The notes below the pieces were generated by a model. The model did no database searches. It was not told where the DNA came from and worked only from the letters and a program-made list of their open reading frames with translations. The translations under genes were made by a program, and so were the position numbers. DNA of 64,000 bases from assembly GCA_028030915.1 (NCBI GenBank), contig GCA_028030915.1_4867.1; one strand, written 5' to 3'. This DNA comes from a phage. Below are positions 6,689 to 57,806 of the stretch, one piece after another; the stretch's first letter is position 1, and every line of letters begins with the position of its first letter.

Positions 6689-6703
6689 TTAGCGCTCCGT
6701 CAA

Positions 6704-7857: not shown

Positions 7858-7865
7858 AAAGTAAG

Positions 7866-7910: not shown

Positions 7911-7919
7911 CGGACCGAT

Positions 7920-8998: not shown

Positions 8999-9008
8999 CT
9001 AATGCTCC

Positions 9009-9416: not shown

Positions 9417-9427
9417 AGCGACCACCT

Positions 9428-9805: not shown

Positions 9806-9818
9806 TTTAAATACTCCT

Positions 9819-10553: not shown

Positions 10554-10606
10554 CGTGAATAAATTCTCCTTAAGGTTACGTCCCTGTAGATAATATCTAT
10601 CTCAGA

Positions 10607-38400: not shown

Positions 38401-39179
38401 CGGACAGTGTGCTAGAAACGGTAATTGGCTGTTGCCATCACTCGGCCACGTTCATGCACCGTATTTCTGTACTCGTCGCACGCACCGCAGGGCGTATTAC
38501 CACTCCAGGCGGCGTGAGCACGTATGCGGGAATCGCGGTTAACTACGGACGTGCTGCACAGGTTGTTATTGGCTTGAACGGCGTTACTGGTTCCGGCCAT
38601 GACTGGACGGCACTTAATCCATCGGTGCGTTTCAGCCACGCGCGAACAGCGGACGGTATTTCGTTCGTGGGAACGATTAACATCGATTCCAAAACGATTA
38701 ACTTTGAGCTGACGCTAACCGCGACAACAAAGACGCTGAAATACACCTTGCAGTCGACCGGCGAGTCGTGGACTGAGGATTTGTCTACCCGTCTCCGTCC
38801 TGACTATATCGACTTGACGAAACTGATTACCGATCCGAGTACGCCGATTTATCACGGCGTGGGTGGTTTGTTTAGTTCCGACACAGAAGCGCGTTTGACT
38901 TACGCTAACCTGAACACGATGCCGACAAAGAATCGTTATTACGCCACGTTCCTTGACTATGCGATTAACTATTCCGGCTTAAACCGCGCAAGATTCTTTA
39001 CTGGCGTGGTGGATGCAGGTTCAACGATTAATGAGATGAACAGCGCGATGTGCAACTATTCATACAGTTCGTTCCGACCAGTGGATACAGGTAAAATTCC
39101 ACCGGCGGCGCACCCATCCAAGATGATGACGTTCAATCCGAAAAACACGTCAGGTCGAACACTTATTATTCGTGATTAA
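35466..39179 (+). CDS. tail fiber protein (1237 aa)
   Basis: AAAGGAG RBS; fiber-type His motifs (APAHTHVPRKDNPHRD; VVGHTHTPAALGIKRATTTEFGLVQFG); N-terminal domain shared with the next three proteins. Confidence 0.7.
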   Translation: MAVVPDPHYQEPGNMQTGEAVTPIGTKYRMLFPAHAPFYTTSLVVKSGGKKLTLGDDYVITHAYVTGMARTGHVCHGGVWITNPKYQSGFTLDYHAIGIGEATAEMIAAEREANKDRYPVDCQWDNVIGDLYFPPVDIKFDWENWRGESELMEAIVAVGAKLGEAISRVDPIARNTLDLQYRAGVTLITSEQYATYDGTGGYTYNASRRRYSLSYQNTTFDAYSLAAKYRLPSIPPETTLNPGELIDWMLCYANGGTSILRLQLKQRAIYLTLTTAIGSGSSNYSYTLTTGLTDTELAGDIELSVVRREGNGVYDITVKTSKQTVNYSFNVDNPPSEFAPGYQKTDVAKWLKFKSGVNLNWWAGENDYVQIRSLPGAPAPDVNNDVYQLLVKYHQIVDKLYRDAPAHTHVPRKDNPHRDSWGAIRALENNGIASDATLVYGKTQPQLTDYVNNLLPKLSTLANKLLRLPAAAQSINGTFGMKPGLTSITSAVGTDESEGVGAQFTVDPRVIRFIGRDSQTVNAGNNPITWQGGANQLILYPDSRGLEFNGKKLLDPTTVGPYLPGNESGGDGLFYGTSTATVTINGNGIQSVPFICTFVPPESDDLGLMAVRLLATEFGDREDLAATPALIKKLDQQFTGKLVAVKSYINDMPLTSSIYIDKTNFGLSNVQNIPDVQLPISPLQRAELDKYAVVGHTHTPAALGIKRATTTEFGLVQFGTAVDDATLALDGGEVIRQADAITEIEKVAKTVDSGASINIIRYGLPGTDIIENGITYTDWMVTIKANDYFVGREYKVPLSTFNLAELFPATHEDAEFGVYVDAAGDDGKYIIYENPNTAETETMTKIGSIITSETGVVFVEIRNVTRLGEFRELGEHIEDDNAHIRRGMTQAEFGFTYGTGGPVWSTGAPGTKRIDADWRYAQASSYTPMLKADYDPAADKWTFKTTSLSVTDYRFVHNTFPMFQNNGITATWTPLTATADSVLETVIGCCHHSATFMHRISVLVARTAGRITTPGGVSTYAGIAVNYGRAAQVVIGLNGVTGSGHDWTALNPSVRFSHARTADGISFVGTINIDSKTINFELTLTATTKTLKYTLQSTGESWTEDLSTRLRPDYIDLTKLITDPSTPIYHGVGGLFSSDTEARLTYANLNTMPTKNRYYATFLDYAINYSGLNRARFFTGVVDAGSTINEMNSAMCNYSYSSFRPVDTGKIPPAAHPSKMMTFNPKNTSGRTLIIRD

Positions 39180-39191
39180 GGAGATTTTTGA

Positions 39192-42100: not shown

Positions 42101-43322
42101 TAAAACCAGAGTCCTGCGGTGGAGTAACTCCCGCACCAGTTTAAACTGCGGCTTTATTGCTGCGCCGTACGATAAACCAACCGGAAGAATTGCCACCACA
42201 CAATCCAGCGTTACTAATACGCTGGTTGATGCTCCTCGTGTAATCAAGAGCGTGGATGTTCAGTCGCCTGACTGTTTAGACTATCTCCCGGTTTCAATCG
42301 CTAGCGAGTTCGCAGCCATTGGTTCGCGCTGGCTTATTCGTTATCGCTATATTGTTGATACGCAGATACTGCGAATATCGTCGATTAGTAAGATAGGCGG
42401 CCAGGCTTCGGCGACTGTTCGTGAGATAGAGTACGACATTCCGTTTGACGCGATTGATTATTTTAAAGGCGGCGCTTTATCGATTAGTGTTACTGGCATC
42501 GAAACTGGTGAAGGCGTCACAATCAACCACGGTTTGATGGACCCTTCCACAACAGAAGTAGATTTAAATCGTTTCCATTATCTACGCTCGCTATTTGAGT
42601 CGTATATTGAGCGTTCTCCGGACAGCCAGTCTTCTGGGCATGAGGAGATGTCGATATCAACCGTCGCGTTCGCGAACTTTGGAGATAACGTCGATAACCC
42701 GGTTACGGAATACATCACGATGTCTGCTGCAAGTGAGGGTTATCCGGAACTTGCACCGAACGGTAAACTCCCCGCACCGTTTTACAAAGGGCTGCAGAAA
42801 CGTGGTGCTCCGCTACTTGAGTCGGCTCCTGCAGACTATACGTCTAACGGTGGTGAATGGAAGTACGGCTTTATGCGGGCTTATCGCCCAACTCAAAATG
42901 AGCGTTTTGTGTCGGTAAATGGGACAATGCTCTCTAACTACCCAGGATATATCATCGTGGGTAGTGAGAAAATTCCGGGTAATGTTATACCTTTCAGTGC
43001 ATCGACAACAGCTGTTCAGATATCTGGGACTCTTGCCCGCACGAAACCGATGCAGCCAATTCACATCGTGTTCGTGCCTCCGGAAGGTTCTGTGCCGCCG
43101 CTGCAAGCGAAGTTCACTATTAATGGCGTGGGCAGTAGTGGTAATCCGATGTTCGTGATTACTGAAACGACACCGGTGGAACTTCGCACTGGTGGCGAGA
43201 CGATTCTCATTGAGAAGCGTAATCCATTCCATATCCCCACCAGGACATGGGATTGGATTTTACAAACGTTGGATACTGAACGTAGAAACGAAGGCAACAA
43301 CTCGGGTGAGTGGGCCTCTTAG
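39192..43322 (+). CDS. tail fiber protein (1376 aa)
   Basis: AAGGAG RBS; GHHHNFADLQIPTASQTVPGIARYST fiber motif; shared N-terminal domain (PFFEGLVVRL...GTDYELEY). Confidence 0.7.
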   Translation: MKTYPYDPRGVNPECHFIEERIIDSDNPNDRVVMLDHRPFFEGLVVRLAGSSIPLTRGTDYELEYALTPLDDSVTTPVFCGVHLINPKLRGAVVFEGQMLGGTFYSGLIEMLDELIKALNNPTAADWLLLGNRPSLYPATPAAVAWSDMLNKKYVASAVHDVELDAGAANEQIREKLTELKDAVLGLGTEIATFNYPGHIASTNPHGTTAAQAGAHPVNLKTPDTFLAYGKTLRQLTSEVRALGLQQSDIDKYISKWVSKESRGVFNATISGTRALFRSPAGESEIVFSAEAFTLKSNGSVVLACGYADTTGTVRFMEWKAGINTLRIESTGSALGMDKLTLNGTTLLTTTALMGYQQDPGTGGGTVDPDDNKLYISGVNGITFTGKGSKADPVTGKVTAKPATTSEPGVVTLTDKPSDVVKGQAATPSALLPYEGDLSSYVRKTTLLNNQPMNTGSRTLTKKDLGLDLADNTADVDKPLSDALAEAVTGLSDKGHHHNFADLQIPTASQTVPGIARYSTNLNGLADNRGVTPNVLNELSKRLDVVAAALANAKEDSVADFAAVRGKTWTVGSTRTTLAVTDLNYFYLLNGTRKEGTVSGSIDLQTTPMFQWFSPDNRMERTWQNAVINTGAGIDFSGFEVAVPETNYGAQIGLTTTGMGDLSVVNLLAKTWVRCDSGKLRIWVRGGGAVSVYLDGEIIGAGITEAGYLEATVKEGWKQHCLAFRAECNDSAKAAAIRFTIYDGDFAVGASDKNTKVARLQEFVKTPNGLRHYLYVNMITDALYSRAEPIVDTEGINLERGYIGHIDVPDAGLVAGTTYEFETTFDFGMASELKRHFETRLAHGVSNTDWSLTDNPKMLPLNKVDPLPKQWLYAYPTNPSVSGDNLVRLDRGLFDYKFVSATSLRILLAAVVSTENASPYCWFTPSNPKENGMATFEGSVVIDTDYPEVPKTSDVEVSLNFMAPSADGKGKTRVLRWSNSRTSLNCGFIAAPYDKPTGRIATTQSSVTNTLVDAPRVIKSVDVQSPDCLDYLPVSIASEFAAIGSRWLIRYRYIVDTQILRISSISKIGGQASATVREIEYDIPFDAIDYFKGGALSISVTGIETGEGVTINHGLMDPSTTEVDLNRFHYLRSLFESYIERSPDSQSSGHEEMSISTVAFANFGDNVDNPVTEYITMSAASEGYPELAPNGKLPAPFYKGLQKRGAPLLESAPADYTSNGGEWKYGFMRAYRPTQNERFVSVNGTMLSNYPGYIIVGSEKIPGNVIPFSASTTAVQISGTLARTKPMQPIHIVFVPPEGSVPPLQAKFTINGVGSSGNPMFVITETTPVELRTGGETILIEKRNPFHIPTRTWDWILQTLDTERRNEGNNSGEWAS

Positions 43323-43357
43323 GACGGACTGCCTACGGGCGGGTAGTCCGTAGGTAA

Positions 43358-43397
43358 ACCGCCCTTCCGTTATTGGGAGGGCGGTCTCCGTTTTATT
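43358..43397 (+). terminator. intrinsic terminator/attenuator between fiber genes (ACCGCCCT...AGGGCGGT, then T-run)
   Basis: Inverted repeat followed by CTCCGTTTTATT; preceded by a second hairpin at about 43323-43354. Confidence 0.45.
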
Positions 43398-43417
43398 ACA
43401 GATTAGGAGTGTTTGCA

Positions 43418-46400
43418 ATGCCGAGAGAAGATGCGGCGCAGTTTAACGGTACCCTCAGTACCGCTACTTACCCGAACCGTTATTCGACGGTCATTCCCGT
43501 CGAAGCACCGTTCTATCGCATCGGGTTAACGTTAACCGTTACCGATAAAGCAACCGGAACCAAACGCAAGTTAATAGAAGGTCTTGATTATTTCTTAGGA
43601 CATTACTTCCAGGAATTAGCCGAGGCTGAGAACGATGCAATATACGGCAGCATAATGCTGCTGAACGCCACAGAGGTAGAATACGAGTTGTTGTCGGTTG
43701 GTCGACAGTATCGCATCCCTGCTTCTGAAATCGGCAAGTATCTGGTTAAGACGGATATGAAAGACCCGCGCAACTGCGATTGGTCTGAGCTGATGAAATA
43801 TCCACCGATTATCTCGCCAATCGACCCGCCAAAAGATCTCGAAGAAGCGATTCTTCGCGATGAAATCGTAAAGGCGTTGGAAGATATCCGTCTGGGTATT
43901 TTAGAGCGCGCCCACGAACTGGATGAGGCATTTGCCGAAGTTACCGATTTGATTTATCAGAACGGTAAGCAGGTGTTTGATGACGAAATGTATCAACACC
44001 ACCTGATTAAAAATGCACATGGTTACACCTGCGGTGACATTGGCGCACTCCCTGTGCTCGGTAAGGCCGTAGATGCGACTAAGGCATTCGGACGTACCCT
44101 GGCAGAGCTAGTGACGTTAATGTCTACCAGTGGCATCCAACAGAAACACGTTGACCTGCTTCTGGATAATACCCTGGGTGATTTACTGGGCCGTATGCGT
44201 GTTCTGAATAACGACGCGATTACGTTCCAAACAACGTCTGGTCACGTTATCAGCATGAAAGGTGAGAAGTTCATCATCACCTCGACAAAACCGCTGGTAT
44301 TAAAAGCTGACCAGGATAACAACGAACCGGGTATCGCTACGGAGTTCAGTGCTGGTCTGAACACGCTTTGGGTTCACTCGGGTAAAGCAGGTGACAAGTG
44401 GGGCGCTTATGATGCAGGTGTGCTTGCACCTGTGTATAACAGCGTGTATCTCGTTACACCGGATATGGTTAAGATGTACTTGACCTCGGTGAAGATACTT
44501 CCAGCAAACGCCTACTTCAAGTCCAGCGACACGTTGAAGATTTACGGCTCTGGTAAAGAAACAAACAAAGTTTACATGAATGCGGAGCTGCCTGCAGCAA
44601 CCACAACTGTGCAGGGTTTGTTTGCGATTACTAACCTCTCGGCATCCGCTGCAGCGTCCACAGCGATTTCCCAAAAAGCTGTTACTGACTTGAAGAACAA
44701 ACTCGACGGATATGTGGACGACACGTATACGGTCAATGGTAAAGGGTTTGTATTAGATTCAAACGGGCAGATGCATCTGACCTTAACCGCGGCAGATTTC
44801 GGTATTGAGAAAATGGACAATACCGGACCGTTAGAAAAGCCTGTTACTAACGCATTGCGTACCGTGCTATCAGGCAAAGCGTTTACATCGCACACCCACA
44901 CCATTGCAGATCTCGATAACGTGCCGTACGCATCCACGTCTGTTACAGGTTTGGCTAAACTGTGGGATGCAATCGACACTACCTCGGATAAGATGGTCAC
45001 TTCGCGCCAAGGCTTCTTGCTTGAACAGAAGATTGACACGCTGAATGACAAGATTGGTACGTTATTACCGGCGTGGACTGTCGGCGGATCATCGTACGGC
45101 AACAATAACTTCTTGCCTATACCAGTCCAGGGGAACTACGAAGGGTATACCAAAAACCAAACCTGGCAGAAAGGTTTGGCGCGTTACGAGTCTGGTAAGG
45201 TTTACTCGCTCCGTAATGGTTCTAACGGGAATCCACCTGGTGACTGGGCTATCTATTACGCTTACGCAGATGTAGCCGCGGATAACACGCTGACGAACAT
45301 GCAGCAGACGTCCGTACGTTACCGCCCCGCTGGAATGTCGGCGTATCCTGGGGTGAATCTGGTTGCTATTGTGATTACCGGTACAGATGCAATGATCTGC
45401 TTAGGCAGTGACGGTGCGTATTACCTGGTCATCTTTGACGGCACCATTGACCATGCAAAACATCATCGTGTTGTTAAAGTTCAGTTGGGCGATTACCGAA
45501 ATGGTAACGCGGCCGGTGTGATTACAACCGCTCCATGGGTTGCCGATCCATCAACAAACGATTTGATCGTTTGCAACGAGCGGGTTTATCTGCTCCGTAC
45601 TGTCCTTACCTCCGGTGACTATTTCGTGAGTATGCGTAGCATCGCACTTGACGAACTTAATCTGGGTGGTAGCAACACGTTTGTGGCGGATGTGTTAACA
45701 GGCGGGATGTTAACGTCGGGAGATAATATCTATTTGCGTCAGGGTCAGAAACGTTCTGATACAGATGTGTTGGTAGCGCCAGTAACACAAATCTACGCAG
45801 ACGCATCGGCGAAGTGGAATAGTGCGCGAAATTTCGTCCATGGTCCGGAATGTAATCACGCGATTGGTGTGGATGGGCTGAACTTTCGTGTTGGTTTAAC
45901 TCCAACGGTTTGGTTTGCTTCTACTACAGGGCAAACTATTAACTTTAAACAATGGGTGTCAAGCTTTGTTGTTGATTGTAGTTCAATGACGATAACGCTG
46001 GAAGGTGCTGATCGATTCCCTATTGTGGCCGATCTTACCACGGTTCGTTATAACGGTGGTGCTGAGATTGGGATTCCGAGCCGGAAATGGGGCGAAGGTC
46101 AAGCTAATAACCGAACCTTTGCAACATCGCAAGACAAGTATATCGTTTCGCAAGGACATGCAGGCGATCGCGACCTGATGCCTTACGTCACGATTACCAC
46201 GTTAGATGACGGTGTGAGTTGGTACGAGTACCTGTCGTGCGACTACAACTTCACTGCCAGAAGTTTTAGTGCGGTAATGTTAAACCAAGGTCGTGGTTCT
46301 ATCTACGAGCTGGGTATGGCGTATCCGCTGACTCTGGGAGCGAATTCCAGACTTATCTGGTTGTCACAGCCGCGTACCCGTTTGGCAATTGAAGTTGAGT

Positions 46401-48601
46401 TTGATCCGAACACCACTTACTCAGGTAAGGCGGGGTACGGCCCAACTAACAATCGTCGTGTGGTGGATTCTACCACGTACGAGAATCTGTCGCAGATGTG
46501 CCACATTGTTACACCGGCGTCGCCTGGTACAGAGTTAAACGGCTGGTATTGCACAGGACCAGAAACATTCCCTTACCACAACGTTTCTGGCACTTTCACG
46601 ATTCATGCCGATCGGTTGACGCTGTCACAAGCTGAATGGGATAAGATGAAGCAGATGATCATCGACGGAGCACCGGCAGGCGCTGCGAATGGTTATGCTT
46701 CGGAATTTATCCTTGCCGCAAATAACGCAGGAAAGGCATTGTTCTCCGTTTGGTTCATCGGCATTGGTACGGCCACACCGCTCACGTTAGCACAAGTAGC
46801 ATGTACGCGTACTGTGAACAACGTTAACGTGTTGGATATCTACTACTTTACACTGAAACCAACAATCAGCAACGGGCAGGTAACATTCCCGGCAGCGATA
46901 TTGGCATTGTTTGACTTCTATAACAACCTCGACTATGGCTTGAACTATGCTACGTTGGGTGAGATAACGGGAGGAAAAACACGCCGGCCGGGACAACCTA
47001 CACTGGTGTCAGTAGATGGTACTCAGTTCGGGTTGTATCTTCCACACACGTTAACCTTGCGCCAAATTGGCGACTTGGGTGCGCTTAACTACGGCGTTGG
47101 TCTTACGCTGTCTAATGGTACCTGGACGCGTTCTTCTGCTCCACACGGCATTGGACGCATGGCACCATCACACACTCCAGTCAGCCCAGCTTATCTGGCT
47201 CATCGTGATCAGGTGATGCTACACAACTCATCTCTCGACTACGTCTATTGTGGTGGTATCGCAATGTCGTCGAGTGATTTTGTCGCGGCTCCTAATTTTA
47301 GTGGCCCGACTGAATCGGTCGTCATTGCTGGTGTGGAAACAGCCGAAGGTTGGCTGGTATATGTGACTGAGGAAGTTGACCTGCGTTTCGGCTCGAGCAC
47401 TTATAAACTGCCTACGTGGTATATTGACCTCAGCGCAGCATTTCCAACAAACCATCAGAACCGGACATTCTACCTGCACGCCAAGGTAGAAAATGGTACA
47501 CCGAAGTACGTAATGGACGTGATTCAACATCCAGACACTGAAACGGAACTCTATATCGGGTATGTTAAAACGGGCTCGTCGCGAGTCGTCGAGACTAACG
47601 TCGAACATGCTAAGCGATTAGGGGCGGTGAAACAACTGTTGGAACATGCGGCGGTTGAGAATAAGCATGATGTGGAGGTGGGAAGGGATGCAGCAACGGG
47701 CAGACTGGCACCATTGCGTAAAGAAGCGATGGGTCCTTTGTCGATCGATGCTACGAAAGGCTATCTGGATAGTCAGTTGCTTTATACCGTATCTGACGCA
47801 CAGCGTCGCGGTAAAGCGATGGTCTCCAAACGTTTCGAAGGCTTGAAAACTTTGCCGGCGTTTACTCAGGCAAACAAGTCGGGGGCGTTTTGGAAACATC
47901 CTACAACAATTGCGACGGTAACGGCCGATGAGAACGGTGAAGCGGCATCGTTGGGAATGGAGTGGGTAGGTATTCCAACGCCCGCTTTCTCACCGACCTC
48001 AACGAACTTGATGGTGGTGGTGCAAAGTAAATTCGTCGTCCCAGGTACACCGGGAGTAGAAACGACCTTTAATGTCCACGTTGCCCCATGGGAGGCGGTG
48101 GATGGCTTTTTCTACAACGTCGAGGCGGAAGGTACGGATGTTAACATTGACGAAAATCCAGAAGTGTTATTGCCGTCACCACATACCGTGCACCACAAAC
48201 AGCACTCTCTGCCAGCAGGCGTGCCGTGCACCTTTACATTTGTCGCGGCGGTAAGTTCTTCAGCGCTCGAAACAGCCAACCAGCATATTTGCTCTTGGCT
48301 TTTCACGGAAGCGGGGGGACTACCAATCACCACCGATCTTTCGGATAGTAAGATTCAAATCTTACCACAGCCGGGAGAAACCTATGGCACTCCAGTTGTT
48401 CTGAACAGTCGTAGCTATACGTTTACGAATGTGGCAGGTGCAATCCCGGTTGTTACCACGGGCGCTCAGGGTTTATTCCCACCACCGATCGTGGCGTGGG
48501 ATGGCGATGATCTTACGTTAACGATTGCGCACGATTGGGTGAACGAGAGAGGACGTCAGCAGCCTGATATTATCCAGGTCAATCTTATGTTCCGTACCTA
48601 A
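43418..48601 (+). CDS. tail fiber protein (1728 aa from the ATG with AGGAG RBS)
   Basis: FTSHTHTIADLDNVPYASTSVTGLAKL fiber motif; shared N-terminal domain (APFYRIGLTLTV...GLDYFLGHY); the track ORF begins upstream at 43373 inside the terminator hairpin. Confidence 0.7.
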   Translation: MPREDAAQFNGTLSTATYPNRYSTVIPVEAPFYRIGLTLTVTDKATGTKRKLIEGLDYFLGHYFQELAEAENDAIYGSIMLLNATEVEYELLSVGRQYRIPASEIGKYLVKTDMKDPRNCDWSELMKYPPIISPIDPPKDLEEAILRDEIVKALEDIRLGILERAHELDEAFAEVTDLIYQNGKQVFDDEMYQHHLIKNAHGYTCGDIGALPVLGKAVDATKAFGRTLAELVTLMSTSGIQQKHVDLLLDNTLGDLLGRMRVLNNDAITFQTTSGHVISMKGEKFIITSTKPLVLKADQDNNEPGIATEFSAGLNTLWVHSGKAGDKWGAYDAGVLAPVYNSVYLVTPDMVKMYLTSVKILPANAYFKSSDTLKIYGSGKETNKVYMNAELPAATTTVQGLFAITNLSASAAASTAISQKAVTDLKNKLDGYVDDTYTVNGKGFVLDSNGQMHLTLTAADFGIEKMDNTGPLEKPVTNALRTVLSGKAFTSHTHTIADLDNVPYASTSVTGLAKLWDAIDTTSDKMVTSRQGFLLEQKIDTLNDKIGTLLPAWTVGGSSYGNNNFLPIPVQGNYEGYTKNQTWQKGLARYESGKVYSLRNGSNGNPPGDWAIYYAYADVAADNTLTNMQQTSVRYRPAGMSAYPGVNLVAIVITGTDAMICLGSDGAYYLVIFDGTIDHAKHHRVVKVQLGDYRNGNAAGVITTAPWVADPSTNDLIVCNERVYLLRTVLTSGDYFVSMRSIALDELNLGGSNTFVADVLTGGMLTSGDNIYLRQGQKRSDTDVLVAPVTQIYADASAKWNSARNFVHGPECNHAIGVDGLNFRVGLTPTVWFASTTGQTINFKQWVSSFVVDCSSMTITLEGADRFPIVADLTTVRYNGGAEIGIPSRKWGEGQANNRTFATSQDKYIVSQGHAGDRDLMPYVTITTLDDGVSWYEYLSCDYNFTARSFSAVMLNQGRGSIYELGMAYPLTLGANSRLIWLSQPRTRLAIEVEFDPNTTYSGKAGYGPTNNRRVVDSTTYENLSQMCHIVTPASPGTELNGWYCTGPETFPYHNVSGTFTIHADRLTLSQAEWDKMKQMIIDGAPAGAANGYASEFILAANNAGKALFSVWFIGIGTATPLTLAQVACTRTVNNVNVLDIYYFTLKPTISNGQVTFPAAILALFDFYNNLDYGLNYATLGEITGGKTRRPGQPTLVSVDGTQFGLYLPHTLTLRQIGDLGALNYGVGLTLSNGTWTRSSAPHGIGRMAPSHTPVSPAYLAHRDQVMLHNSSLDYVYCGGIAMSSSDFVAAPNFSGPTESVVIAGVETAEGWLVYVTEEVDLRFGSSTYKLPTWYIDLSAAFPTNHQNRTFYLHAKVENGTPKYVMDVIQHPDTETELYIGYVKTGSSRVVETNVEHAKRLGAVKQLLEHAAVENKHDVEVGRDAATGRLAPLRKEAMGPLSIDATKGYLDSQLLYTVSDAQRRGKAMVSKRFEGLKTLPAFTQANKSGAFWKHPTTIATVTADENGEAASLGMEWVGIPTPAFSPTSTNLMVVVQSKFVVPGTPGVETTFNVHVAPWEAVDGFFYNVEAEGTDVNIDENPEVLLPSPHTVHHKQHSLPAGVPCTFTFVAAVSSSALETANQHICSWLFTEAGGLPITTDLSDSKIQILPQPGETYGTPVVLNSRSYTFTNVAGAIPVVTTGAQGLFPPPIVAWDGDDLTLTIAHDWVNERGRQQPDIIQVNLMFRT

Positions 48602-48648
48602 CAGATAGCGCTATGGGGCAAGGAAGCCCCAATCAAAGGAGTTTGGCA

Positions 48649-49851
48649 ATGGCCGAAATCATTCATCAGTACCCGCTCGACCTTACCGGGACATTAACGT
48701 CGAACGCCGTTACACGGCGTATTACGTTAGGTTCTGGTAAAGTTAACCGGGCTTTTGCATTTCCTGACGGAGCTTTCTACGCGGATACCTTCCGCTTGGC
48801 AGCTGCGAATAAACCAGGTGTCTACCCGTACAAACGCGGCACAGACTACGAACTGATTTTTGCACATACTGCATATCAGAAAATGACCAAGAACCGCGAA
48901 GTGGTCATGGGTGTGGTGGTAACTAACTCGGCCATTCCTACTGATATCGAGGTCTCTGCGCAAGTCGTTGGTGGTTTTCAGTCTGCGAACGTCGAAGGCA
49001 TCCGACAAGCGATTGCGTCGTTGAAAATTGAAGACCGCGTGGTGGACTTCAAGGATCTTCGAAACGTACCCGATACGTTCCCGTCCGCCCCGACGTATAA
49101 AGACCTTGGCGATATCTACGGTTTTGAGTATATCATTACCGTACTCGCGGGGATTAAAGATGCGATTAACTCCGGCTCTGCAGTACAGCTGGAAGAAATT
49201 AAAGGTATTCTGGATGGTCTGAAAAACGACTTCCTCGACGCCTTAAATACCCACATCAACGCCGAAGGTAACGTACACAATCTCGACATTCATCAGGTTA
49301 ATGGCCTGACGGAGACGGAGATTCGTGCCCTGATTCAAAGTGTACAGACTGCCATTGACGCCACTATCAGAGATATCGGCGACTTAAGAGCAGCAGACAC
49401 GGCATTGGGGCAACGCATCGATGCAATTGTGGCTTCGTTAGCCGCGTGGAACGACCAGCTTAACGTGGTTGCTCAAAATTACCAGAAAATGTCGTTAGCA
49501 TTAGCTAACCTTAATTCTCTGGTGTTGCAATTACAGAAGATGGTTAACGATCTTCAGTCTGCACTGAATGAAACAAATCAGCGTGTCACGGATCTTGAGA
49601 ATCAGGGCAAAGACTTCCAACAGCAAATTGATAACCTGCAAGGACAAATCAACAGTCTTAAAACTCAGGTTGTAAACAACACCAACGCAATTTCGCAGGC
49701 AAACCAGAATCTGGCGAACCATGCGGCTGCGGATAACCCACACCCGAATTACCTCCATAAACAGTATGGCGGTGTTGTGCAGGCTGCTGTTCACGTCAAC
49801 AACAACCTCACCTCGCGCGACGATGTTCAAGCTGAAGCGGGTACTAAGTAA
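48649..49851 (+). CDS. short tail fiber-like protein with coiled-coil (about 400 aa)
   Basis: AAGGAG RBS at the internal Met; shared N-terminal domain (GAFYADTFRL...GTDYELIFAHT); heptad-like Q/N/L-rich segment; NPHPNYLHK motif near the C-terminus. Confidence 0.6.
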   Translation: MAEIIHQYPLDLTGTLTSNAVTRRITLGSGKVNRAFAFPDGAFYADTFRLAAANKPGVYPYKRGTDYELIFAHTAYQKMTKNREVVMGVVVTNSAIPTDIEVSAQVVGGFQSANVEGIRQAIASLKIEDRVVDFKDLRNVPDTFPSAPTYKDLGDIYGFEYIITVLAGIKDAINSGSAVQLEEIKGILDGLKNDFLDALNTHINAEGNVHNLDIHQVNGLTETEIRALIQSVQTAIDATIRDIGDLRAADTALGQRIDAIVASLAAWNDQLNVVAQNYQKMSLALANLNSLVLQLQKMVNDLQSALNETNQRVTDLENQGKDFQQQIDNLQGQINSLKTQVVNNTNAISQANQNLANHAAADNPHPNYLHKQYGGVVQAAVHVNNNLTSRDDVQAEAGTK

Positions 49852-49860
49852 CTTGTTTAC

Positions 49861-49905
49861 GAGCCGGACTATGTTTATGGACATAGTCCGCTCGTTCTAC
49901 TTTTT
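49861..49905 (+). terminator. intrinsic terminator/attenuator (CGGACTATGT...ACATAGTCCG, then T-run)
   Basis: 10-bp inverted repeat followed by CTACTTTTT, between the last fiber gene and the Cys-rich peptide genes. Confidence 0.45.
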
Positions 49906-49916: not shown

Positions 49917-50309
49917 ATGGCGATATCTATTAAAGACGTCAGAAACCGCGTCCAGATAGTCGAAGCTAACATGGCGACAGGCCCCCGCATCGAGGCGCAA
50001 GTGGCCTCTAAAGCCCATAATGCGGCAGACCGATTTGGGGGTTGGACGAAAGCACAGCTAGATTGCGGCGGGACATGTTCTTGGACATGCTCTAACGGTT
50101 GCTCGCACGGCTGTTCGAGCTGTTCAGGAAGCTGTTCTGCTTCTTGTATCGGTAGCTGTTCTTCGACGTGTGGCGGTAACTGTTCTGGTTGCTCTGGTTG
50201 TTCTGGTGGTTGCAGTAGTAGCTGTACCGGTAACTGCACAGGTGGTTGCGGTGGCTCATGTTCTTCCAGTTGTTCCGGGGCCTGCTCCGGCGGCTGTTCA
50301 GGTCGCTAA
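49917..50309 (+). CDS. Cys-rich repeat protein A (130 aa): ~49-aa leader-like N-terminus plus a CxxxC repeat tail with about 21 Cys; candidate RiPP precursor
   Basis: ATG with AAGGA RBS; N-terminus MAISIKDVRNRV is paralogous to the next two ORFs; tail DCGGTCSWTCSNGCSHGCSSCSGSC...CSGACSGGCSGR. Confidence 0.6.
   Translation: MAISIKDVRNRVQIVEANMATGPRIEAQVASKAHNAADRFGGWTKAQLDCGGTCSWTCSNGCSHGCSSCSGSCSASCIGSCSSTCGGNCSGCSGCSGGCSSSCTGNCTGGCGGSCSSSCSGACSGGCSGR
50064..50306 (+). repeat. in-frame period-12-nt coding repeat (Cys-Ser/Gly-x-x) within protein A
   Basis: Reiterated TGC/TGT-containing units (e.g. tgttctggttgctctggttgttctggtggttgc); both alternative frames are also open, as expected for a low-complexity repeat. 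Confidence 0.6.
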
Positions 50310-50319
50310 GGGGGATTAA

Positions 50320-50724
50320 ATGGCAATTGGATTAAAAGAACTGAATAACCGATTAAACACGATCGATGCAAACGCTCTAAAGAATACCACGAATGTGCAA
50401 AACTACATTCGCAATAAAGCTACGAATAACGCTGACTTGTTCGCAGGTCAAGGTCGTTCGCACTACGACTGTGGTGGTACGTGTTCTTTTAGCTGCTCAA
50501 GTTGCTCTGGCGGCTGCACAGGATCTGCGACAGGTGGTTGTGGGTCGACTTGTTCGGCAAACTGTGTATCAGGCTGTAGCAGCAGCTGCACGGGCTGTAG
50601 CTCTTCGTGCTCTGGTGGTTGTAGCGGCACGTGCACAGGCAGCTGTTCTGGGGGTTGTGGTAAATCCTGCTCCGCAAACTGCTCAGGTGCGTGCTCTGGT
50701 GGTTGTTCAGGTCCTAACTCCTAA
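50320..50724 (+). CDS. Cys-rich repeat protein B (134 aa): leader-like N-terminus plus a CxxxC repeat tail with about 20 Cys; candidate RiPP precursor
   Basis: ATG with GGGGGA RBS; MAIGLKELNNRL leader paralogous to A; tail begins YDCGGTCSFSC and ends CSGACSGGCSGPNS. Confidence 0.6.
   Translation: MAIGLKELNNRLNTIDANALKNTTNVQNYIRNKATNNADLFAGQGRSHYDCGGTCSFSCSSCSGGCTGSATGGCGSTCSANCVSGCSSSCTGCSSSCSGGCSGTCTGSCSGGCGKSCSANCSGACSGGCSGPNS
50470..50721 (+). repeat. in-frame period-12-nt coding repeat (Cys-Ser/Gly-x-x) within protein B
   Basis: Same repeat style as in A; alternative frames open. Confidence 0.6.
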
Positions 50725-50739
50725 CTGACGGAGGCTTAT

Positions 50740-50946
50740 GTGATCAGTCTCAAGACTATTCGAAACCGTCTCGTTACGGCAGAAGGTTACATTACAACCG
50801 CACAGGCAAACAACTATATCGCTAACCAGGGCACCGTGTCGACCACAAATAACCTGGCTGGCTTACCGCTTTCTCACTATAACTGTAATGGTGGGTGTAG
50901 CTGGTCCTGCAGCGGAAGCTGTAGCCGTGGAGCGGGGAATCGATAA
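50740..50946 (+). CDS. Cys-rich short paralog C (68 aa, GTG start): leader-like N-terminus plus a short CNGGCSWSCSGSCS core
   Basis: GGAGG RBS 5 nt before GTG; MISLKTIRNRL leader matches A and B; core starts YNCNGGCSW, like the start of the A and B cores. Confidence 0.5.
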   Translation: MISLKTIRNRLVTAEGYITTAQANNYIANQGTVSTTNNLAGLPLSHYNCNGGCSWSCSGSCSRGAGNR

Positions 50947-50968: not shown

Positions 50969-51856
50969 ATGAAAAACGATTTGCATCTTGCGTATAAAAC
51001 CACATTCAACCACCCGCTGCATCTATCTTCCCCAGATTCAGTGCGTGCACACCTTGCTGACAAAGTCAGACTGATTGCACAGATTCCTGGTGAGTGGCCA
51101 AAGGTTCGTGGTCGCTTCTTGACCGACAAGAAGAACTACACCGTAGAAAATACGTTTAAGATCCGTGATATGGTTGCAGAGGCCATCGTTATCTTTAACG
51201 GCGATGGTAACTCTCGTGGCGTGTTAGTCGACGGTAAGTATTTCTTCAGTGAAGGGATTTTGAACAACAGCGTCGATTTAGAACTGATGTTTACACCGTT
51301 TGACGAACTTGAAGCAAAACCGATGGCGCGCCGTTGGTGGAGTCCGGACTATCTGGGCTCGTTCCCTTACTACTTTGTACTGGTACCTGCCGATACGGAA
51401 ACGTATTTCGACACCGAACCATACATCGATATCGAGGGGTATAAAGAACTCGGCATCACCCGTTTAGCGGACATGATGGCGTATAGCTATAAGTTCGTGT
51501 GGGATAAAAAGCGTTCTGTCTGGTATGCACTGACTGACGATTTCGAAATCACCAAACGTATTCGTAAACCGTGGATGCAACATCTGGTTCAAACCCGATA
51601 TGGGGATTATCCGGCGACGGAAGCGGATTTGAGTAAGCTGGTAAGTTTCCTCTTAACGAAGGTGGATTTAACGAAAGAAGAAGCAGAAGCTGTTTCTGAG
51701 ATTCGTGGTCGTTCGGTAACGTTGGCCGATTTGAAACGCCTGAACGAAAGACACGCCGACCTGAACAAAATTTTAGCTGCCTATCACGACCCGATGTTAC
51801 TGGTGCCCGGCGCTAATGTAGACGAAGATCCTTTATTCGCCATTGATTATATTTAA
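50969..51856 (+). CDS. hypothetical protein (295 aa) within the Cys-peptide/radical-SAM cluster
   Basis: GGAG RBS; no recognised motif; lies between the precursors and the rSAM genes. Confidence 0.5.
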   Translation: MKNDLHLAYKTTFNHPLHLSSPDSVRAHLADKVRLIAQIPGEWPKVRGRFLTDKKNYTVENTFKIRDMVAEAIVIFNGDGNSRGVLVDGKYFFSEGILNNSVDLELMFTPFDELEAKPMARRWWSPDYLGSFPYYFVLVPADTETYFDTEPYIDIEGYKELGITRLADMMAYSYKFVWDKKRSVWYALTDDFEITKRIRKPWMQHLVQTRYGDYPATEADLSKLVSFLLTKVDLTKEEAEAVSEIRGRSVTLADLKRLNERHADLNKILAAYHDPMLLVPGANVDEDPLFAIDYI

Positions 51857-51878: not shown

Positions 51879-52793
51879 ATGACAGATCAAGTAGAATCCA
51901 GGATCTCGTCTGAACTGTACGACAAACCGTCAATTCTGTCGGTTGTCGCAACTTCTAAGTGTAACTTAGACTGTAGCTTCTGTGGAGGGGCTTATTACAT
52001 GGATAGAGAAGATACTTCTCGTGAGTTTCAACGTGAAGAGATTCTCTCGATTTTAGAGAAGAATCCGGATATCGGTGAGATTCATTGGACGGGCGGTGAG
52101 CCGCTGTTAGCGCAGCGCAAGATTGAAGACTTCGTGAACGAGTTGAAGGAGTCTCATCCGAACCTCCGTCATCACATGTACACCAACGGTTTAAAGATGC
52201 GTAAATCACATCTGCCGTTGCTGAAACAGTTCGACCTTATCTTTGTGTCCATTGACGGCTACAAGAAGTCGGAACGTCCGTTTATGAACTTTGTAAACGG
52301 TGGTAATCATGAAGCGCTGGAAGTGCTGTACGAGCTGGACAACTATTACACCTGGGGTGTGATGACGCGTGACCAGTTAGGTGATAAACGCTGGTACGAA
52401 GATTTCATCGAGCTGCACCGAGCAATCTATCATTACCGTCCAGGTGGGATGTCGTTGCTGTTTGATGCGATGATGCCGAAACCGTTATCGCCAGACCACG
52501 TCATGAACTTCATGTACGGGTATTGGAAAATACTCGACAATATCGAACGCCTTAACATGCAGAACGATTCTGAATGTGGGCTTGCGATCAGTAAAATGTT
52601 CGATACCGAGTGCAACACGTGCAGTGAAGTTCTGTGGCTTAACGCCGACGGTACGCAGGAGCAAATTCAGAACGCCCCAGAGATATTGGAAGTCGGCTGT
52701 AATCGCCTGGCGCGTTCTATCGGCGTTGATGCGTATAACTACATCAACCGTGTAATTTCTGCTAAGCGTAAACGGGCGGCGAACAATGAGTAA
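51879..52793 (+). CDS. radical SAM enzyme (about 305 aa) with short Cys-containing C-terminal extension
   Basis: CNLDCSFC (C-x3-C-x2-C) near the N-terminus, WTGGEPLL, YTNG, SIDG; C-terminal ECGLAISKMFDTECNTCSEV...GC; GGAG RBS before the ATG at 51879 (the track ORF starts at an upstream TTG). Confidence 0.7.
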   Translation: MTDQVESRISSELYDKPSILSVVATSKCNLDCSFCGGAYYMDREDTSREFQREEILSILEKNPDIGEIHWTGGEPLLAQRKIEDFVNELKESHPNLRHHMYTNGLKMRKSHLPLLKQFDLIFVSIDGYKKSERPFMNFVNGGNHEALEVLYELDNYYTWGVMTRDQLGDKRWYEDFIELHRAIYHYRPGGMSLLFDAMMPKPLSPDHVMNFMYGYWKILDNIERLNMQNDSECGLAISKMFDTECNTCSEVLWLNADGTQEQIQNAPEILEVGCNRLARSIGVDAYNYINRVISAKRKRAANNE

Positions 52794-54114
52794 CAGCGAA
52801 CAGCAAATCCAGTACACACCACGCACATATCAGGTCGTGACTAACTTGTCATGTAACCTGGACTGCGAATACTGCTACGAGCGTAAATACCCACGCAACA
52901 ACAAAGTAGCTGACGTGATTGATTTTATCCACGCTTGCTTCGAGCGTGATAAAGATATCCCGAACGTTGAAGTCATCATCGATATCATCGGTGGTGAGCC
53001 GTTCATGCAGCCTAAACTTCTTTTGGCGGCCTTTGAAACCGCAGAGAAGTTATGTGCAGAACACAATCGCCCGTATATGTTCAGTATCTCCACGAACGGT
53101 ACGCTTCTGGACCGTCCGCTGAACAAAGAAATTATCGAGCGCTGGAAAGACAAACTGTCTATTGGGGTCTCCATCGATGGTTTACCTGAAATCCATGACA
53201 AATATCGTATCTTTACCACGACGCGTGAAGGGTCGTACGAAGCTGCGGTACGCGGTTACAATTACCTGAAGAGTGTTGGCATCGCTGAGCTGGGCGTAAA
53301 GGCGACGTTTACGATCGATACATTGCCGCACTATGCCGCCAGCATGAAATCGTTAATTGACATGTCCGGCGGTGGTACCATTTCTGGTAACGTAACGTAC
53401 GAAGATATCCTGCCGCGCCATATGGCGTTGGATATCGCGAACCAGATGATGGACGTGATGGACTACTGGATTGAGAAGGGTCTGCACACCAACCCGCGTA
53501 ACACGATTACGCACATCATCCCGGATGGCCTGAACTTTATGGCAACTTGGGACCCGGATTGGCGTGACAAACTCTTACATGACGACTCTGTTCGTCTCGA
53601 CCCAGAACGCCTGAAACCGTACTGCGGTACGTTGACGCACATGACCTGTCTCGGCTTTGATCGCAAGATTTACGGTTGTAACCGTTTCATGTCCACGGTA
53701 ACTTCCCGTTCTGCTGTAGCAGAACTGGTCGGTCGTGAGTTTGTGAGCCTGGACGGTGGTAAGCTGTTAGAAGAGATTCAAACGCAGTACACCAACTACC
53801 CAGAAACCTGTTTAGGGTGTCCGATGAAACACAGCTGCGGTAGCTGCGCAGCAGCATCGTACGAAAACGGTGAAGGTACACTGGAAGACCGTAAAGCGTA
53901 TCACGCCGAGCGTCGTCAGTGTGGTTGGACTACTGCGAAGCTGATGGCGGCGGAATATTGGTATCAGAAAACTGGTACGACCCGCGCATCAGATTTGCAC
54001 GATAAATCCATGTGCTATTGTTCACGTTGTGTACGCCAACGTGCTGAAGCAGAAAAATTACAAAACGGAGCCCAGAATGAAGTCAATACTGATTCACAAT
54101 TTTACGAAGCGTAA
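52786..54114 (+). CDS. radical SAM enzyme with SPASM-like Cys-rich C-terminal domain (442 aa)
   Basis: CNLDCEYC (C-x3-C-x2-C), GGEPF, STNG, SIDG; C-terminal cysteine cluster CGTLTHMTCLGFDRKIYGCNRF...CLGCPMKHSCGSCAAASY; start overlaps the upstream rSAM stop by 8 nt. Confidence 0.75.
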   Translation: MSNSEQQIQYTPRTYQVVTNLSCNLDCEYCYERKYPRNNKVADVIDFIHACFERDKDIPNVEVIIDIIGGEPFMQPKLLLAAFETAEKLCAEHNRPYMFSISTNGTLLDRPLNKEIIERWKDKLSIGVSIDGLPEIHDKYRIFTTTREGSYEAAVRGYNYLKSVGIAELGVKATFTIDTLPHYAASMKSLIDMSGGGTISGNVTYEDILPRHMALDIANQMMDVMDYWIEKGLHTNPRNTITHIIPDGLNFMATWDPDWRDKLLHDDSVRLDPERLKPYCGTLTHMTCLGFDRKIYGCNRFMSTVTSRSAVAELVGREFVSLDGGKLLEEIQTQYTNYPETCLGCPMKHSCGSCAAASYENGEGTLEDRKAYHAERRQCGWTTAKLMAAEYWYQKTGTTRASDLHDKSMCYCSRCVRQRAEAEKLQNGAQNEVNTDSQFYEA

Positions 54115-54643
54115 ACTGCACTTGGTCGATCGCTTCCTGCGCAAAAGCAAGCTGTACAATGTGCACGCAATTGTGGCAGGGGAAGACTTCACTGATGAAA
54201 TCCAAAGCCTGTTGATTAAATACGGGCTGAATGTGATGATCCCGGTCTACTGCGTTGAGAAAGGACACGAGTCTGTCGCGGAAATCGAAAAGCGCAACCC
54301 TGGCTTTGAGAAGCGACTGCTTGCATACCCACGCCACAAAATCGAACTGCTACGACACTCTATTGATGAAGCCAGTCCTGAAAGTTTAGTGGCATTGGGC
54401 TTGTCTTTCCCGCGGATGCGTATTCGTAACTTACGCTCCAATAACCCGGTTGACGCTTATTACACAGAGCGTCAAATCTTCGAAGAACACCTGCTCCCGC
54501 AGTTGGAAGAAGAAGAGCAACACAACATTTCTCTGTTGTGGGCCGGTAACCTCGATCAGGACTTCCAGATGCTGGACTTCGGTTTGTTGTTAGAACTTGG
54601 CCTGATTGAGGAGGACGAATGTCTGTTACTGACAAAAGCTTAA
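54077..54643 (+). CDS. hypothetical protein (188 aa from the internal Met with GGAG RBS)
   Basis: The track ORF starts at 54029 inside the rSAM gene; the Met at 54077 has an RBS but still overlaps the rSAM 3' end by 38 nt. Confidence 0.4.
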   Translation: MKSILIHNFTKRKLHLVDRFLRKSKLYNVHAIVAGEDFTDEIQSLLIKYGLNVMIPVYCVEKGHESVAEIEKRNPGFEKRLLAYPRHKIELLRHSIDEASPESLVALGLSFPRMRIRNLRSNNPVDAYYTERQIFEEHLLPQLEEEEQHNISLLWAGNLDQDFQMLDFGLLLELGLIEEDECLLLTKA

Positions 54644-55290
54644 CGAACGAAGAGATCCGCGCCCGTTATTTCCAGCGTGATTTGCCGATTGATCGTCACG
54701 GTAATTTCATGGAACGAATCGGTGCGCAGGATCAGGGCCGTACCGGATTTTGTGCATTACTCCATTACCATCTCATCGAAGGGATGTCTGATAAAGAAGC
54801 CCTGGCACGCATGAAGCTGTATGAGATGTCGGAGATTGAAGCTAACTTCACATTGAAACGCACGAAAGAGTTTATTGCTAATGTGCTGGAGATTGACCTC
54901 GACGAAATTCGCGGGAATCTGAAATCTACCGCACGTTACATTTACGAAGACGTGCAGAAGATGCTGTTGGAACTCGACCACCGCTACGAAGATGAGCGCC
55001 ATGGTTATATCGAGTTTGAAGGTAGTCACTTTCAAGCCGATGAATCGTCGCGTACCATCCTCGGTCAATACATTCAGGCAGATACCGCACCAGAATACTG
55101 GCTCGATACGCTGAATACTAAGCACAGTCCGTTTACAGTAGCCCAATGTAAAGCGTTGCTGGCCGCTATTGTTGCACGTGACCAAGTGTTGCACTCAGCA
55201 ATGGCAGATAACAAACGCCAAATCCGTGAGTTAGCTGAAAAGCGCGATTACACTGGATTAAAAACATTGTCCGAGTCACTCGGCATGTAA
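54619..55290 (+). CDS. hypothetical protein (223 aa), last gene of the cluster
   Basis: ORF overlapping the previous gene by 25 nt; followed by a strong terminator. Confidence 0.5.
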   Translation: MSVTDKSLTNEEIRARYFQRDLPIDRHGNFMERIGAQDQGRTGFCALLHYHLIEGMSDKEALARMKLYEMSEIEANFTLKRTKEFIANVLEIDLDEIRGNLKSTARYIYEDVQKMLLELDHRYEDERHGYIEFEGSHFQADESSRTILGQYIQADTAPEYWLDTLNTKHSPFTVAQCKALLAAIVARDQVLHSAMADNKRQIRELAEKRDYTGLKTLSESLGM

Positions 55291-55302: not shown

Positions 55303-55348
55303 AAGGCCCTACCTCCCCGAAGGGAGGTAGGTACCTTTTATTTATTTC
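55303..55348. terminator. bidirectional intrinsic terminator (CCCTACCTCCC-CGAA-GGGAGGTAGG, then T-run)
   Basis: Inverted repeat between convergent genes 54619..55290 (+) and 55372..55899 (-). Confidence 0.6.
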
Positions 55349-57164: not shown

Positions 57165-57806
57165 TTAAGGGGTAGTCAGGAACGCACGTTTGATATTCAA
57201 ATACTGCACGTTTACCGGTTGCCCATTAGTAATGTCAACACGTTCGTGTTCAGGAATCGCTAACGTACGCGACGTTCTAAAGAACAGGTAGTTGCGATTA
57301 TAGGACAACGTCTTTTCTACCGGCCGGCTATAAACCACCTTAGAGTTATCGTCTACATAGGACGGCCAACCAAACTCGTGAACGGCATGGTAGAAGGACT
57401 TACGAATAAAGGTGTCAACGCCTAATGCCTCCATGATACGTAAGAACATCAGGTCAGCGAAAGTTTTGTCACATGCACGAGATAGATTACCTTCGACAGT
57501 GTCAGGGTAAAAGCCTACAGATGAACGTTTCTGGTAAAACAAATCATGCACACAAGCGGCAGCAGCCCAAGGCCCATCCGGATGCAGGATAGGACGTAAC
57601 GCTTCTGGAATGCTTGCCAGGTCCGTCACAAATCCTTTCGGTACCGTTACCCATAACGGGGTATCCGGATGCACACCTGCTAATGCTACCATCGCATCCA
57701 TTCCGGTCTGTTCACGATAGAGGCTGCGCAACGTAAACTCGAAATGGAAATCATCCGTGAGGATAAACCACGGCTTCTCTAACAACTTATACTTAAGTGC
57801 TTCCAT
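57165..57806 (-). CDS. DUF1353-family protein (213 aa)
   Basis: VTVPKGFVTDLASIPEALRP...AAACVHDLFY matches the DUF1353 core pattern (P-x-GF-x-TD-x-ASIP ... HD). Confidence 0.5.
   Translation of the reverse strand: MEALKYKLLEKPWFILTDDFHFEFTLRSLYREQTGMDAMVALAGVHPDTPLWVTVPKGFVTDLASIPEALRPILHPDGPWAAAACVHDLFYQKRSSVGFYPDTVEGNLSRACDKTFADLMFLRIMEALGVDTFIRKSFYHAVHEFGWPSYVDDNSKVVYSRPVEKTLSYNRNYLFFRTSRTLAIPEHERVDITNGQPVNVQYLNIKRAFLTTP

Follow-up and report, generated by a model that had tools for sequence, protein, structure and literature searches.

Background

The closest described relative of the locus reported here is the CXXX-repeat system, in which a target protein with a cysteine at every fourth position (families TIGR04114/TIGR04117 and PF27846) is encoded beside a radical S-adenosylmethionine (SAM)/SPASM enzyme (TIGR04115). 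The present analysis concerns a window of 64,000 nucleotides of phage DNA, that is the whole stretch that was analysed (contig GCA_028030915.1_4867.1 of the NCBI GenBank assembly GCA_028030915.1), and within it three small tandem genes, here called A, B and C, whose products carry a Cys repeat, together with the radical SAM enzyme genes gp164 and gp163. The plan is the same as in the described system, with a period-4 Cys target beside a radical SAM/SPASM enzyme, and a bona fide member of that system in a Firmicutes prophage (L011) is likewise found in a phage tail module. The type found in gut phages and Firmicutes has accessory proteins of about 195 and about 100 amino acids, whereas a second radical SAM enzyme, gp165, gp162 and gp161 are found here. 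Since a CXXX repeat combined with a radical SAM enzyme is already covered by two curated families and by a PHROG, the locus represents no wholly new category. Judged by family scores below cut-off, the presence of two radical SAM enzymes and the different accessories, it is a divergent version.

Several other enzyme systems are points of comparison. QhpD crosslinks cysteines within a protein subunit and not in a natural-product peptide, which makes QhpD/QhpC the closer functional analogy. CteB, which acts on SCIFF, is the best solved relative of gp163, at low similarity, and its precursor with six Cys in 45 residues is unlike A, B and C. The His-Xaa-Ser system also joins a short-period repeat substrate (HxsA) to two radical SAM enzymes (HxsB and HxsC), but its repeat is H-x-S instead of C-x-x-x and the system is itself uncharacterised. 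PapB introduces six in-line thioether rings into the Cys-X3-Asp motifs of PapA (PMC9413430). The PapB/PapA pair (freyrasin) resembles the present locus in having a SPASM enzyme, a repeated motif and three residues between the linked partners; it differs in the number of units, six compared with about 20 here, and in its short secreted peptide, compared with proteins of 68-480 amino acids or the ends of fibres.

Two features of phage tail fibres are also relevant. Accessory genes such as those for P2 gpG/Tfa and T4 gp38/gp57A lie directly after the fibre gene and are needed to complete the distal tip. The tip of the T4 gp37 fibre contains a metal ladder with His-x-His iron sites, and this iron needle is, like the repeat described here, a short-period ladder of ligands; here the residue is Cys and the links are presumably covalent and not bridged by metal.

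The CXXX-repeat family has been defined by bioinformatics only. The literature searched contained no paper on the chemistry of the CXXX repeat, its link to phage tails, radical SAM enzymes acting on tail fibres or SPN3US gp161-166, and a cyanophage paper mentioning a radical SAM maturase proved to be unrelated. The tail-fibre context of the CXXX-repeat system appears to be undescribed in that literature.

The cysteine repeat of A, B and C

ORF A (49917..50309, + strand) encodes 130 amino acids and is preceded by the Shine-Dalgarno sequence AAGGAAG. Its N-terminal segment (49917-50063) has a helix at residues 5-21 followed by a fibre-type junction, NAADRFGGWTKAQLD, and its core (50064-50306) contains 21 Cys. 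The paralogue B (50320..50724, + strand, 134 amino acids, Shine-Dalgarno sequence GGGGGA) has a core at 50470-50721 with 20 Cys, and the short paralogue C (50740..50946, + strand, 68 amino acids, GTG start, Shine-Dalgarno sequence GGAGG) has a core at 50884-50943 with only 4. The spacers between the genes are 10 nt (A-B) and 15 nt (B-C).

Spacing of the cysteines is strikingly regular. The distance from one Cys to the next is exactly 4 in 17 of 20 gaps in A (the other three are 3), in 16 of 19 gaps in B (two are 3 and one is 8) and in all three gaps in C. Cys, Ser and Gly make up about 83% of the core of A and 79% of that of B, with Thr as the other main residue, and Asp and Glu are wholly absent from all three cores. 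The cores begin with DCGGTCSW (A), DCGGTCSF (B) and NCNGGCSW (C), which can be written as (D/N)C(G/N)G(T/G)CS(W/F), and A and B share the end CSGACSGGCSG. When all stop-to-stop segments of at least 40 amino acids in the six frames of the window were compared (753 segments), long runs in which every Cys gap is 3 or 4 were found only in A (20) and B (14); the run is 3 in C and in one further segment and at most 2 in all the rest. None of 200,000 shuffles of the core of A or B matched the observed run, the longest run among the shuffles being 11. The repeat in C is insignificant on its own, as 1.6% of shuffles match it, and C is accepted as real because it is conserved. No further copy of the N-terminal motif of A, B and C was found elsewhere in the window.

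The first-pass annotation of the window, made from the letters alone, had located this repeat correctly: the first Cys codon of A is at 50064 and the last sense codon of C at 50943. Its period-4 spacing and its counts of 21, 20 and 4 Cys hold, with shuffles failing to reproduce A or B, and the core start that it saw in all three genes and the core end that it saw in A and B are present in the sequences. It had also set the repeat apart from the Cys-X3-Asp style of ranthipeptides, which agrees with cores free of Asp and Glu.

A, B and C match PHROG 6085, a family of unknown function, with E values of 1e-40, 3e-41 and 2.7e-24, and relatives of the three proteins have a precomputed assignment to PF27846 (tSAM_targ_Cxxx_rpt).

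Reading frame, selection and annotation

A, B and C were compared with their counterparts in phage STsAS, where the DNA identity is about 80% and the protein identity of A and B is 88-89%. The differences at codon positions 1, 2 and 3 of the Cys frame are 14, 8 and 71 in A, 13, 10 and 71 in B and 5, 3 and 27 in C. In A and B the Cys frame is also intact, with an excess of third-position differences, against phages Machina, Asesino, Phobos, CR5 and Kwan (53-70% protein identity), while C was compared with its equal-length orthologues in STsAS and Asesino only. Each alternative frame of A and B has stops within the gene in the comparison of six phages. The Cys frame is the coding frame of A, B and C and is under purifying selection.

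The first-pass annotation had described both alternative frames as open through the repeat and had named two findings that would speak against the Cys-rich proteins, namely expression of another frame and disruption of the genes in related genomes. The +1 frame, and one reverse frame, are indeed open through the cores of A and B, whereas each of these two genes contains 10 stops in the +2 frame. As to expression, the codon-position bias favours the Cys frame. No disrupted copy of A or B was found in 20 related loci, consisting of 18 members of the clade in IMG/VR and two more distant metagenomic relatives, where both genes are intact. The number of Cys in A is exactly 21 in 19 of these 20 loci (L016-L033 and L096) and 31 in the more distant L097. 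The orthologues of C in CR5, Phobos, Kwan and L096 have only 2 Cys.

That the three lengths reflect duplication and expansion of a minimal unit, as the same annotation proposed, holds only in part. The three genes are old paralogues, and orthologues of each are found in several phage genera. Tandem repetition at the DNA level is weak (Tandem Repeats Finder scores 30-67) and the codons for Cys, Ser and Gly are mixed, so the repeat is upheld at the protein level. A recent tandem expansion is ruled out by these scores, the mixed codons, the age of the paralogues and the constant number of Cys in A.

The genes have been missed or misread in several records. The GenBank and RefSeq records of SPN3US omit A, B and C, and SPN3US gp166 (window 50393-50728, + strand) is the +1 frame of B, with a Val/Ala-rich product. 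A gene caller made the same wrong-frame call in the metagenomic locus L096 (11297-11623), and other frames or strands, some of them reverse-strand ORFs, are annotated in Phobos, CR5, Kwan and Asesino. C is a hypothetical protein in many records, and in phage Machina all three genes are correctly annotated. In one 4964-bp Logan contig (P0004), a single case, a variant of B shifts to the Val/Ala frame near its end and continues for 165 amino acids; this may be an assembly error or a genuine frameshift allele.

The radical SAM enzymes

The A, B and C genes share strand and unit with gp163 and end 1.8-2.5 kb 5' of its start. gp163 (52786..54114, + strand, 442 amino acids) is a radical SAM/SPASM-type enzyme with a PF04055 match and a CX3CX2C motif encoded at 52852-52875. 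Its best NCBIfam match is TIGR04115, 'radical SAM peptide maturase, CXXX-repeat target family' (125.5 bits, E value 3.3e-36), followed by the PapB family (113.8 bits against a cut-off of 340), which is the second-best family also for bona fide CXXX maturases. CteB (5wgg) is matched with an E value of 4e-10 and 42 bits, and the SCIFF maturase family with 53.3 bits against a cut-off of 425. HxsB is matched by gp163 (E value 5e-21) and HxsC by gp164 (E value 6e-12), with scores far below the cut-offs.

When gp163 was aligned with seven distant relatives, with identities down to 25%, the cysteines C23/C27/C30, C280, C298, C342, C345, C351, C354 and C379 were invariant in all of them, L010, L011 and L014 included. 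The motifs of TIGR04115 are thus present in gp163, i.e. CX3CX2C and a Cys-rich SPASM-type C-terminus, and the Pfam SPASM model gave no score on it. There is no N-terminal recognition domain, the radical SAM core beginning at about residue 18. gp163 is presumed to be the maturase of the Cys repeat.

The other enzyme, gp164 (51879..52793, + strand, 304 amino acids, PF04055 E value 1e-15), has its CX3CX2C motif encoded at 51960-51983, and its conserved cysteines are 28/32/35 and, towards the C-terminus, 245/248/274. The start annotated in SPN3US (approximately 51999) is 3' of the codons for this motif, and the true start is likely the ATG at 51879, which has GGAG 9 nt upstream. The genes gp164 and gp163 overlap by 8 nt and are a single fused protein of 686 amino acids in a more distant phage (L035), which argues that the two enzymes act together, probably as a complex.

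Pairing of repeat and maturase in other phages

When IMG/VR was scanned with an alignment that comprised seven maturases, 340 relatives were obtained, and the best 80 loci were inspected. In 79 of the 80, a same-strand ORF with a run of C-x2/3-C adjoins the maturase relative. These ORFs encode 68-480 amino acids with 4-92 Cys, and the repeat is mostly C-terminal and in some N-terminal. In both clades 82-83% of the Cys gaps are 4 and 12-16% are 3, and A and B agree in this with 72 repeat proteins of other phages. In the prophage L011, the maturase scores 389 bits (cut-off 350) and the target 20.5 (cut-off 20), a bona fide TIGR04115 system; the L014 maturase scores 287 bits. Four gut-phage loci in IMG/VR (L036, L043, L051 and L057) are permuted, with an N-terminal Cys repeat and a non-Cys C-terminal domain of about 110 amino acids, and three genes of this kind occur together in L051. 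In deposited phage genomes the system is confined to the SPN3US-like clade, to three Ralstonia phages and to uncultured gut contigs.

Tail-fibre context

Five unrelated phage contexts were annotated, and the cassette is inside a tail module in all five. In the Firmicutes prophage L011 the gene order is tape measure, Dit, Tal, collagen-like fibre, Cys-repeat protein, two small proteins, maturase, holin and endolysin, and in a gut-phage contig fibre-like proteins are found on either side of the cassette.

In the two nearest relatives outside the jumbo clade the repeats end bona fide tail fibres, of 384 and 451 amino acids. L034 (31% identity) is P2-like, with the order Baseplate_J, Tail_P2_I, tail fibre, a 250-amino-acid protein, radical SAM/SPASM enzyme, radical SAM enzyme, DUF1353, sheath and tube. 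Its fibre matches PF12571 with an E value of 2e-40 and the Cys repeat constitutes its final approximately 45 residues. The cassette fills the slot that is usual for a tail-fibre assembly chaperone, as in P2 and T4, with radical enzymes as the accessories. In L035 (29% identity, a 284-kb contig) the order is the repeat-ended fibre, a gp165 homologue, the fused double radical SAM enzyme and more fibres. This fibre matches tail-fibre PHROGs (E value 3e-32), its C-terminal end is the repeat, and residues 356-444 match PHROG 6085, the family of A, B and C (E value 2.7e-7). A, B and C thus show homology to a tail fibre, through the junction and the repeat only, the fibre shaft not being shared.

The intermediate relatives L096 and L097 retain the A/B/C triplet. 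L097 (an 83-kb metagenomic contig, 2492-10829) has four radical SAM genes, and its A, B and C have 31, 33 and 5 Cys. It also encodes a 149-amino-acid paralogue with an N-terminus of the A/B/C type in which a globular, tail-fibre-tip-like C-terminal domain replaces the repeat.

The unit and its neighbourhood

The window shares 98-99% identity over 6 kb with the Salmonella phages SPLA5c and SPN3US and with Proteus phage 7, and on this identity it is from an SPN3US-like jumbo phage. Contigs of approximately 240 kb from such phages occur in numerous NCBI assemblies that bear the label Salmonella enterica or E. coli, which suggests that SPN3US-like phages are often carried by, or co-sequenced with, isolates.

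The unit consists of eight densely packed + strand genes, A, B, C, gp165, gp164, gp163, gp162 and gp161, with a hairpin on either side. The upstream border is a terminator-like hairpin followed by a U-run (49859..49895, + strand), which separates gp167 from A; its fold has -23.7 kcal/mol (z = -5.6) and none of 200 shuffles was equally stable. It escaped a consensus terminator scan because of a bulge. The downstream border is a bidirectional terminator-like hairpin (55308..55331) 3' of gp161 with a 10-bp stem, 7 GC pairs and T-runs on both strands.

Three accessory genes complete the unit. gp165 (50969..51856, + strand, 295 amino acids) is a conserved accessory of the cassette, and we infer a role in substrate handling or as a chaperone. 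Its homologue in L035 is supported by hhalign (96.8%, E value 3e-10) and PHROG 8030 (E value 1.3e-7), and the direct comparison with the 250-amino-acid protein of L034 is weak (hhalign 18%), the link being through the L035 protein only. The Firmicutes-type accessories show no BLASTP similarity to gp165, and the idea that gp165 is a fusion of the 192-amino-acid and 102-amino-acid proteins of that type was therefore rejected. A second radical SAM enzyme together with a gp165-like protein is the conserved accessory set of the proteobacterial type. gp162 (54077..54643, + strand, 188 amino acids, PHROG 7988) is a conserved follower of the maturase, with a homologue directly 3' of the maturase in L096 (BLASTP 3e-11). 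As listed, the ORF starts at GTG 54029 and overlaps gp163 by 86 nt; from ATG 54077 the overlap is 38 nt, and this is probably the true start since the PHROG alignment begins at residue 17 and GGAG precedes the ATG. The last gene, gp161 (54619..55290, + strand), encodes a DUF4376 protein (PF14301, E value 1.4e-9) with a weak match to a PHROG 'tail protein' family. Searches of the eight genes against Pfam, NCBIfam and PHROG gave no family match for a protease, exporter, immunity gene or PqqD-like domain.

Upstream of the unit are the genes for the virion tail proteins gp168 (43373-48601, + strand) and gp167 (48613-49851, + strand), the latter directly 5' of A, both 98-99% identical to SPN3US. 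gp168 resembles phiKZ gp131, a protein of the baseplate periphery. In the SPN3US virion proteomics of Thomas et al. gp167-171 were present in whole particles and missing from tailless ones, and none of gp161-gp166 was detected in virions (PMC5105663, Table S4). SPN3US gp170, gp169 and gp168 (1237, 1376 and 1742 amino acids; window 35466-48601) have no Pfam match despite their abundance in the published tail proteomics. On the other side, gp109 (57165-57806, - strand) is labelled 'tail assembly chaperone' in SPN3US and DUF1353 in the STsAS annotation. A DUF1353 gene is directly 3' of the radical SAM pair in L034 and near the maturase in L097, and the DUF1353 protein gp109 may be a functional part of the module.

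Discussion

Our explanation, which we hold with moderate confidence, is that A, B and C are mini-fibre or fibre-tip proteins whose Cys tails are crosslinked iteratively by radical SAM enzymes. The first-pass annotation had offered iterative modification and a metal-binding rod as readings of the repeat; it had noted neither the catalogued family nor the tail-fibre setting. Iterative enzymatic modification is the better supported because there are two radical SAM genes within 1-2 kb downstream and because repeat and maturase are paired in 79 of 80 loci.

The N-terminal approximately 48 residues of A, B and C, a helix and a junction of the type 'N-A-x-D-x-F/L-x-G ... Y-D/N-C' as in phage fibres, would serve oligomerisation or docking, and the Cys tail would be the substrate of gp163/gp164 with the help of gp165. 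By analogy with PapB, CteB and QhpD, an auxiliary Fe-S cluster of gp163 would bind the thiol of each Cys, and a 5'-deoxyadenosyl radical would take a hydrogen from a nearby carbon so that a C-S thioether closes. Thioether chemistry is suggested because these three nearest characterised enzymes all form Cys thioethers. The acceptor would be a backbone alpha carbon, as in sactipeptides, or a neighbouring Cys, because no other position of the repeat is conserved. With about 20 repeats along the chain, small rings could form a ladder or the chains of a trimer could be stapled together, and the product would be a compact rod or knot with crosslinks independent of redox state. It would lie at the distal tip of a fibre within the baseplate fibre network (gp167-171).

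More tentatively, we suggest that a poly-thioether 'cysteine ladder' made by dedicated radical SAM enzymes can form the end of phage tail fibres and that the CXXX-repeat family is a widespread tail-fibre maturation system that replaces a chaperone. Each Cys may be both donor and acceptor, a linkage pattern without precedent, since only Cys is conserved and the spacing equals the Cys-X3-acceptor distance of PapB. It can be speculated that a thioether tip has the advantage that it can be made in a reducing cytoplasm with no need for oxidising conditions; many of the source phages are from gut samples.

Several observations count against crosslinked fibre tips and explain the moderate confidence. 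The scores of both partners are below the thresholds of the curated families: gp163 does not reach the TIGR04115 cut-off (350 bits), and A, B and C match only TIGR04114 in NCBIfam, the 'Cys-rich repeat-containing protein' family, with 19.6, 17.1 and 13.7 bits where 20 is required. The Asp or Glu that PapB requires (PMC9413430) is absent from A, B and C, where position i+4 is the next Cys, and Cys is the sole conserved residue of the repeat. The second radical SAM enzyme, gp164, is unexplained by the proposal. gp165 has no recognisable fold and no RiPP-recognition element (RiPP, ribosomally synthesised and post-translationally modified peptide) was identified in the unit; gp165 may be a novel recognition protein. 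The AlphaFold2 model of A, from an alignment of 9 sequences, has a predicted local distance difference test score (pLDDT) of 44 with only helix 5-21 moderately confident, and structural inference from it was dropped. A, B and C are free-standing and small in the SPN3US-like phage, and their attachment to a fibre here is therefore argued from relatives only. The modification, its thioether type, the acceptor atom and residence in the virion are what we infer. Finally, because the annotation omits A, B and C, they were lacking from the list of SPN3US proteins behind the virion mass spectrometry and could not have been detected in the published data. The predicted tryptic peptides are VQIVEANMATGPR, IEAQVASK, AHNAADR and FGGWTK for A and LNTIDANALK and NTTNVQNYIR for B.

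The alternative that survives best, which we nevertheless consider unlikely, is that the radical SAM pair matures A, B and C into a diffusible RiPP natural product (a bacteriocin, a signal or an anti-defence peptide) that is freed at lysis and is no part of the virion. The leader-plus-core layout with three precursors in tandem is typical of RiPP clusters, gp163 is closest to RiPP maturase families, and NCBIfam classes the system as a peptide maturase with its target. The failure to see gp161-gp166 in virions also fits, but the same proteomics was blind to A, B and C. No leader protease, exporter or immunity gene accompanies the precursors in the unit. A diffusible product is difficult to reconcile with a repeat that ends bona fide tail fibres, with cassettes within tail modules in all five annotated contexts, or with repeat proteins of up to 480 amino acids and 92 Cys. 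In L097, moreover, the same 'leader' is found in a paralogue that carries a fibre-tip domain.

It is still less probable that the Cys repeats act unmodified, as metal-thiolate or disulfide rods, and that the radical SAM enzymes have other substrates. Cys-rich, Gly/Ser-rich sequences are able to bind metals, a conserved acceptor residue is absent and the iron sites of T4 gp37 provide a precedent at a fibre tip. The metal-binding rod of the first-pass annotation is weakened since a rod alone leaves the strict linkage unexplained: the repeat adjoins a maturase in 79 of 80 loci, in phages that otherwise share nothing. The closest characterised relatives of the maturase (PapB, CteB and QhpD) are all formers of Cys thioethers, and a curated pair of enzyme and target families already exists. 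That A, B and C are artefacts of repetitive, GC-skewed DNA, with another frame (gp166) or nothing expressed, has a negligible probability. In its favour, the +1 and one reverse frame are open through the cores, and the annotators of SPN3US, Phobos, CR5, Kwan and Asesino picked a different frame or strand. A wrong-frame or reverse-strand origin is nevertheless ruled out by the codon-position statistics and by stops in every alternative frame, none of which spans the gene. In addition, a separate Shine-Dalgarno sequence precedes each gene, the N-terminal domains are conserved, PHROG 6085 is built on the Cys frame and gp166 is undetected in virions.

Conclusions

The reference annotation of SPN3US can be corrected irrespective of function: A, B and C are added, gp166 is mis-framed and gp164 is cut short before its cluster motif. 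If the fibre-maturation explanation is right, SPN3US-like phages are, apart from three Ralstonia phage records, the only cultured and genetically tractable examples, and SPN3US with its amber-mutant genetics and Salmonella host is a tractable test system. If confirmed, a maturase able to install some 20 rings in a Ser/Gly scaffold would be of interest to peptide engineers.

To our knowledge, the known crosslinks of virions, such as the isopeptide bonds of the HK97 capsid, disulfides and metal sites, use no dedicated radical enzyme. If true, the modification proposed here would provide the first case of a virion structural protein modified post-translationally by radical SAM enzymes, and a new type of virion maturation. 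It would explain why oxygen-sensitive, strictly intracellular enzymes are found in fibre modules, as thioethers would form in the reducing cytoplasm and last in anaerobic habitats, where disulfides are unreliable. A radical SAM family that is so far an orphan, with members in hundreds of gut and environmental phage genomes, would also gain a biological role.

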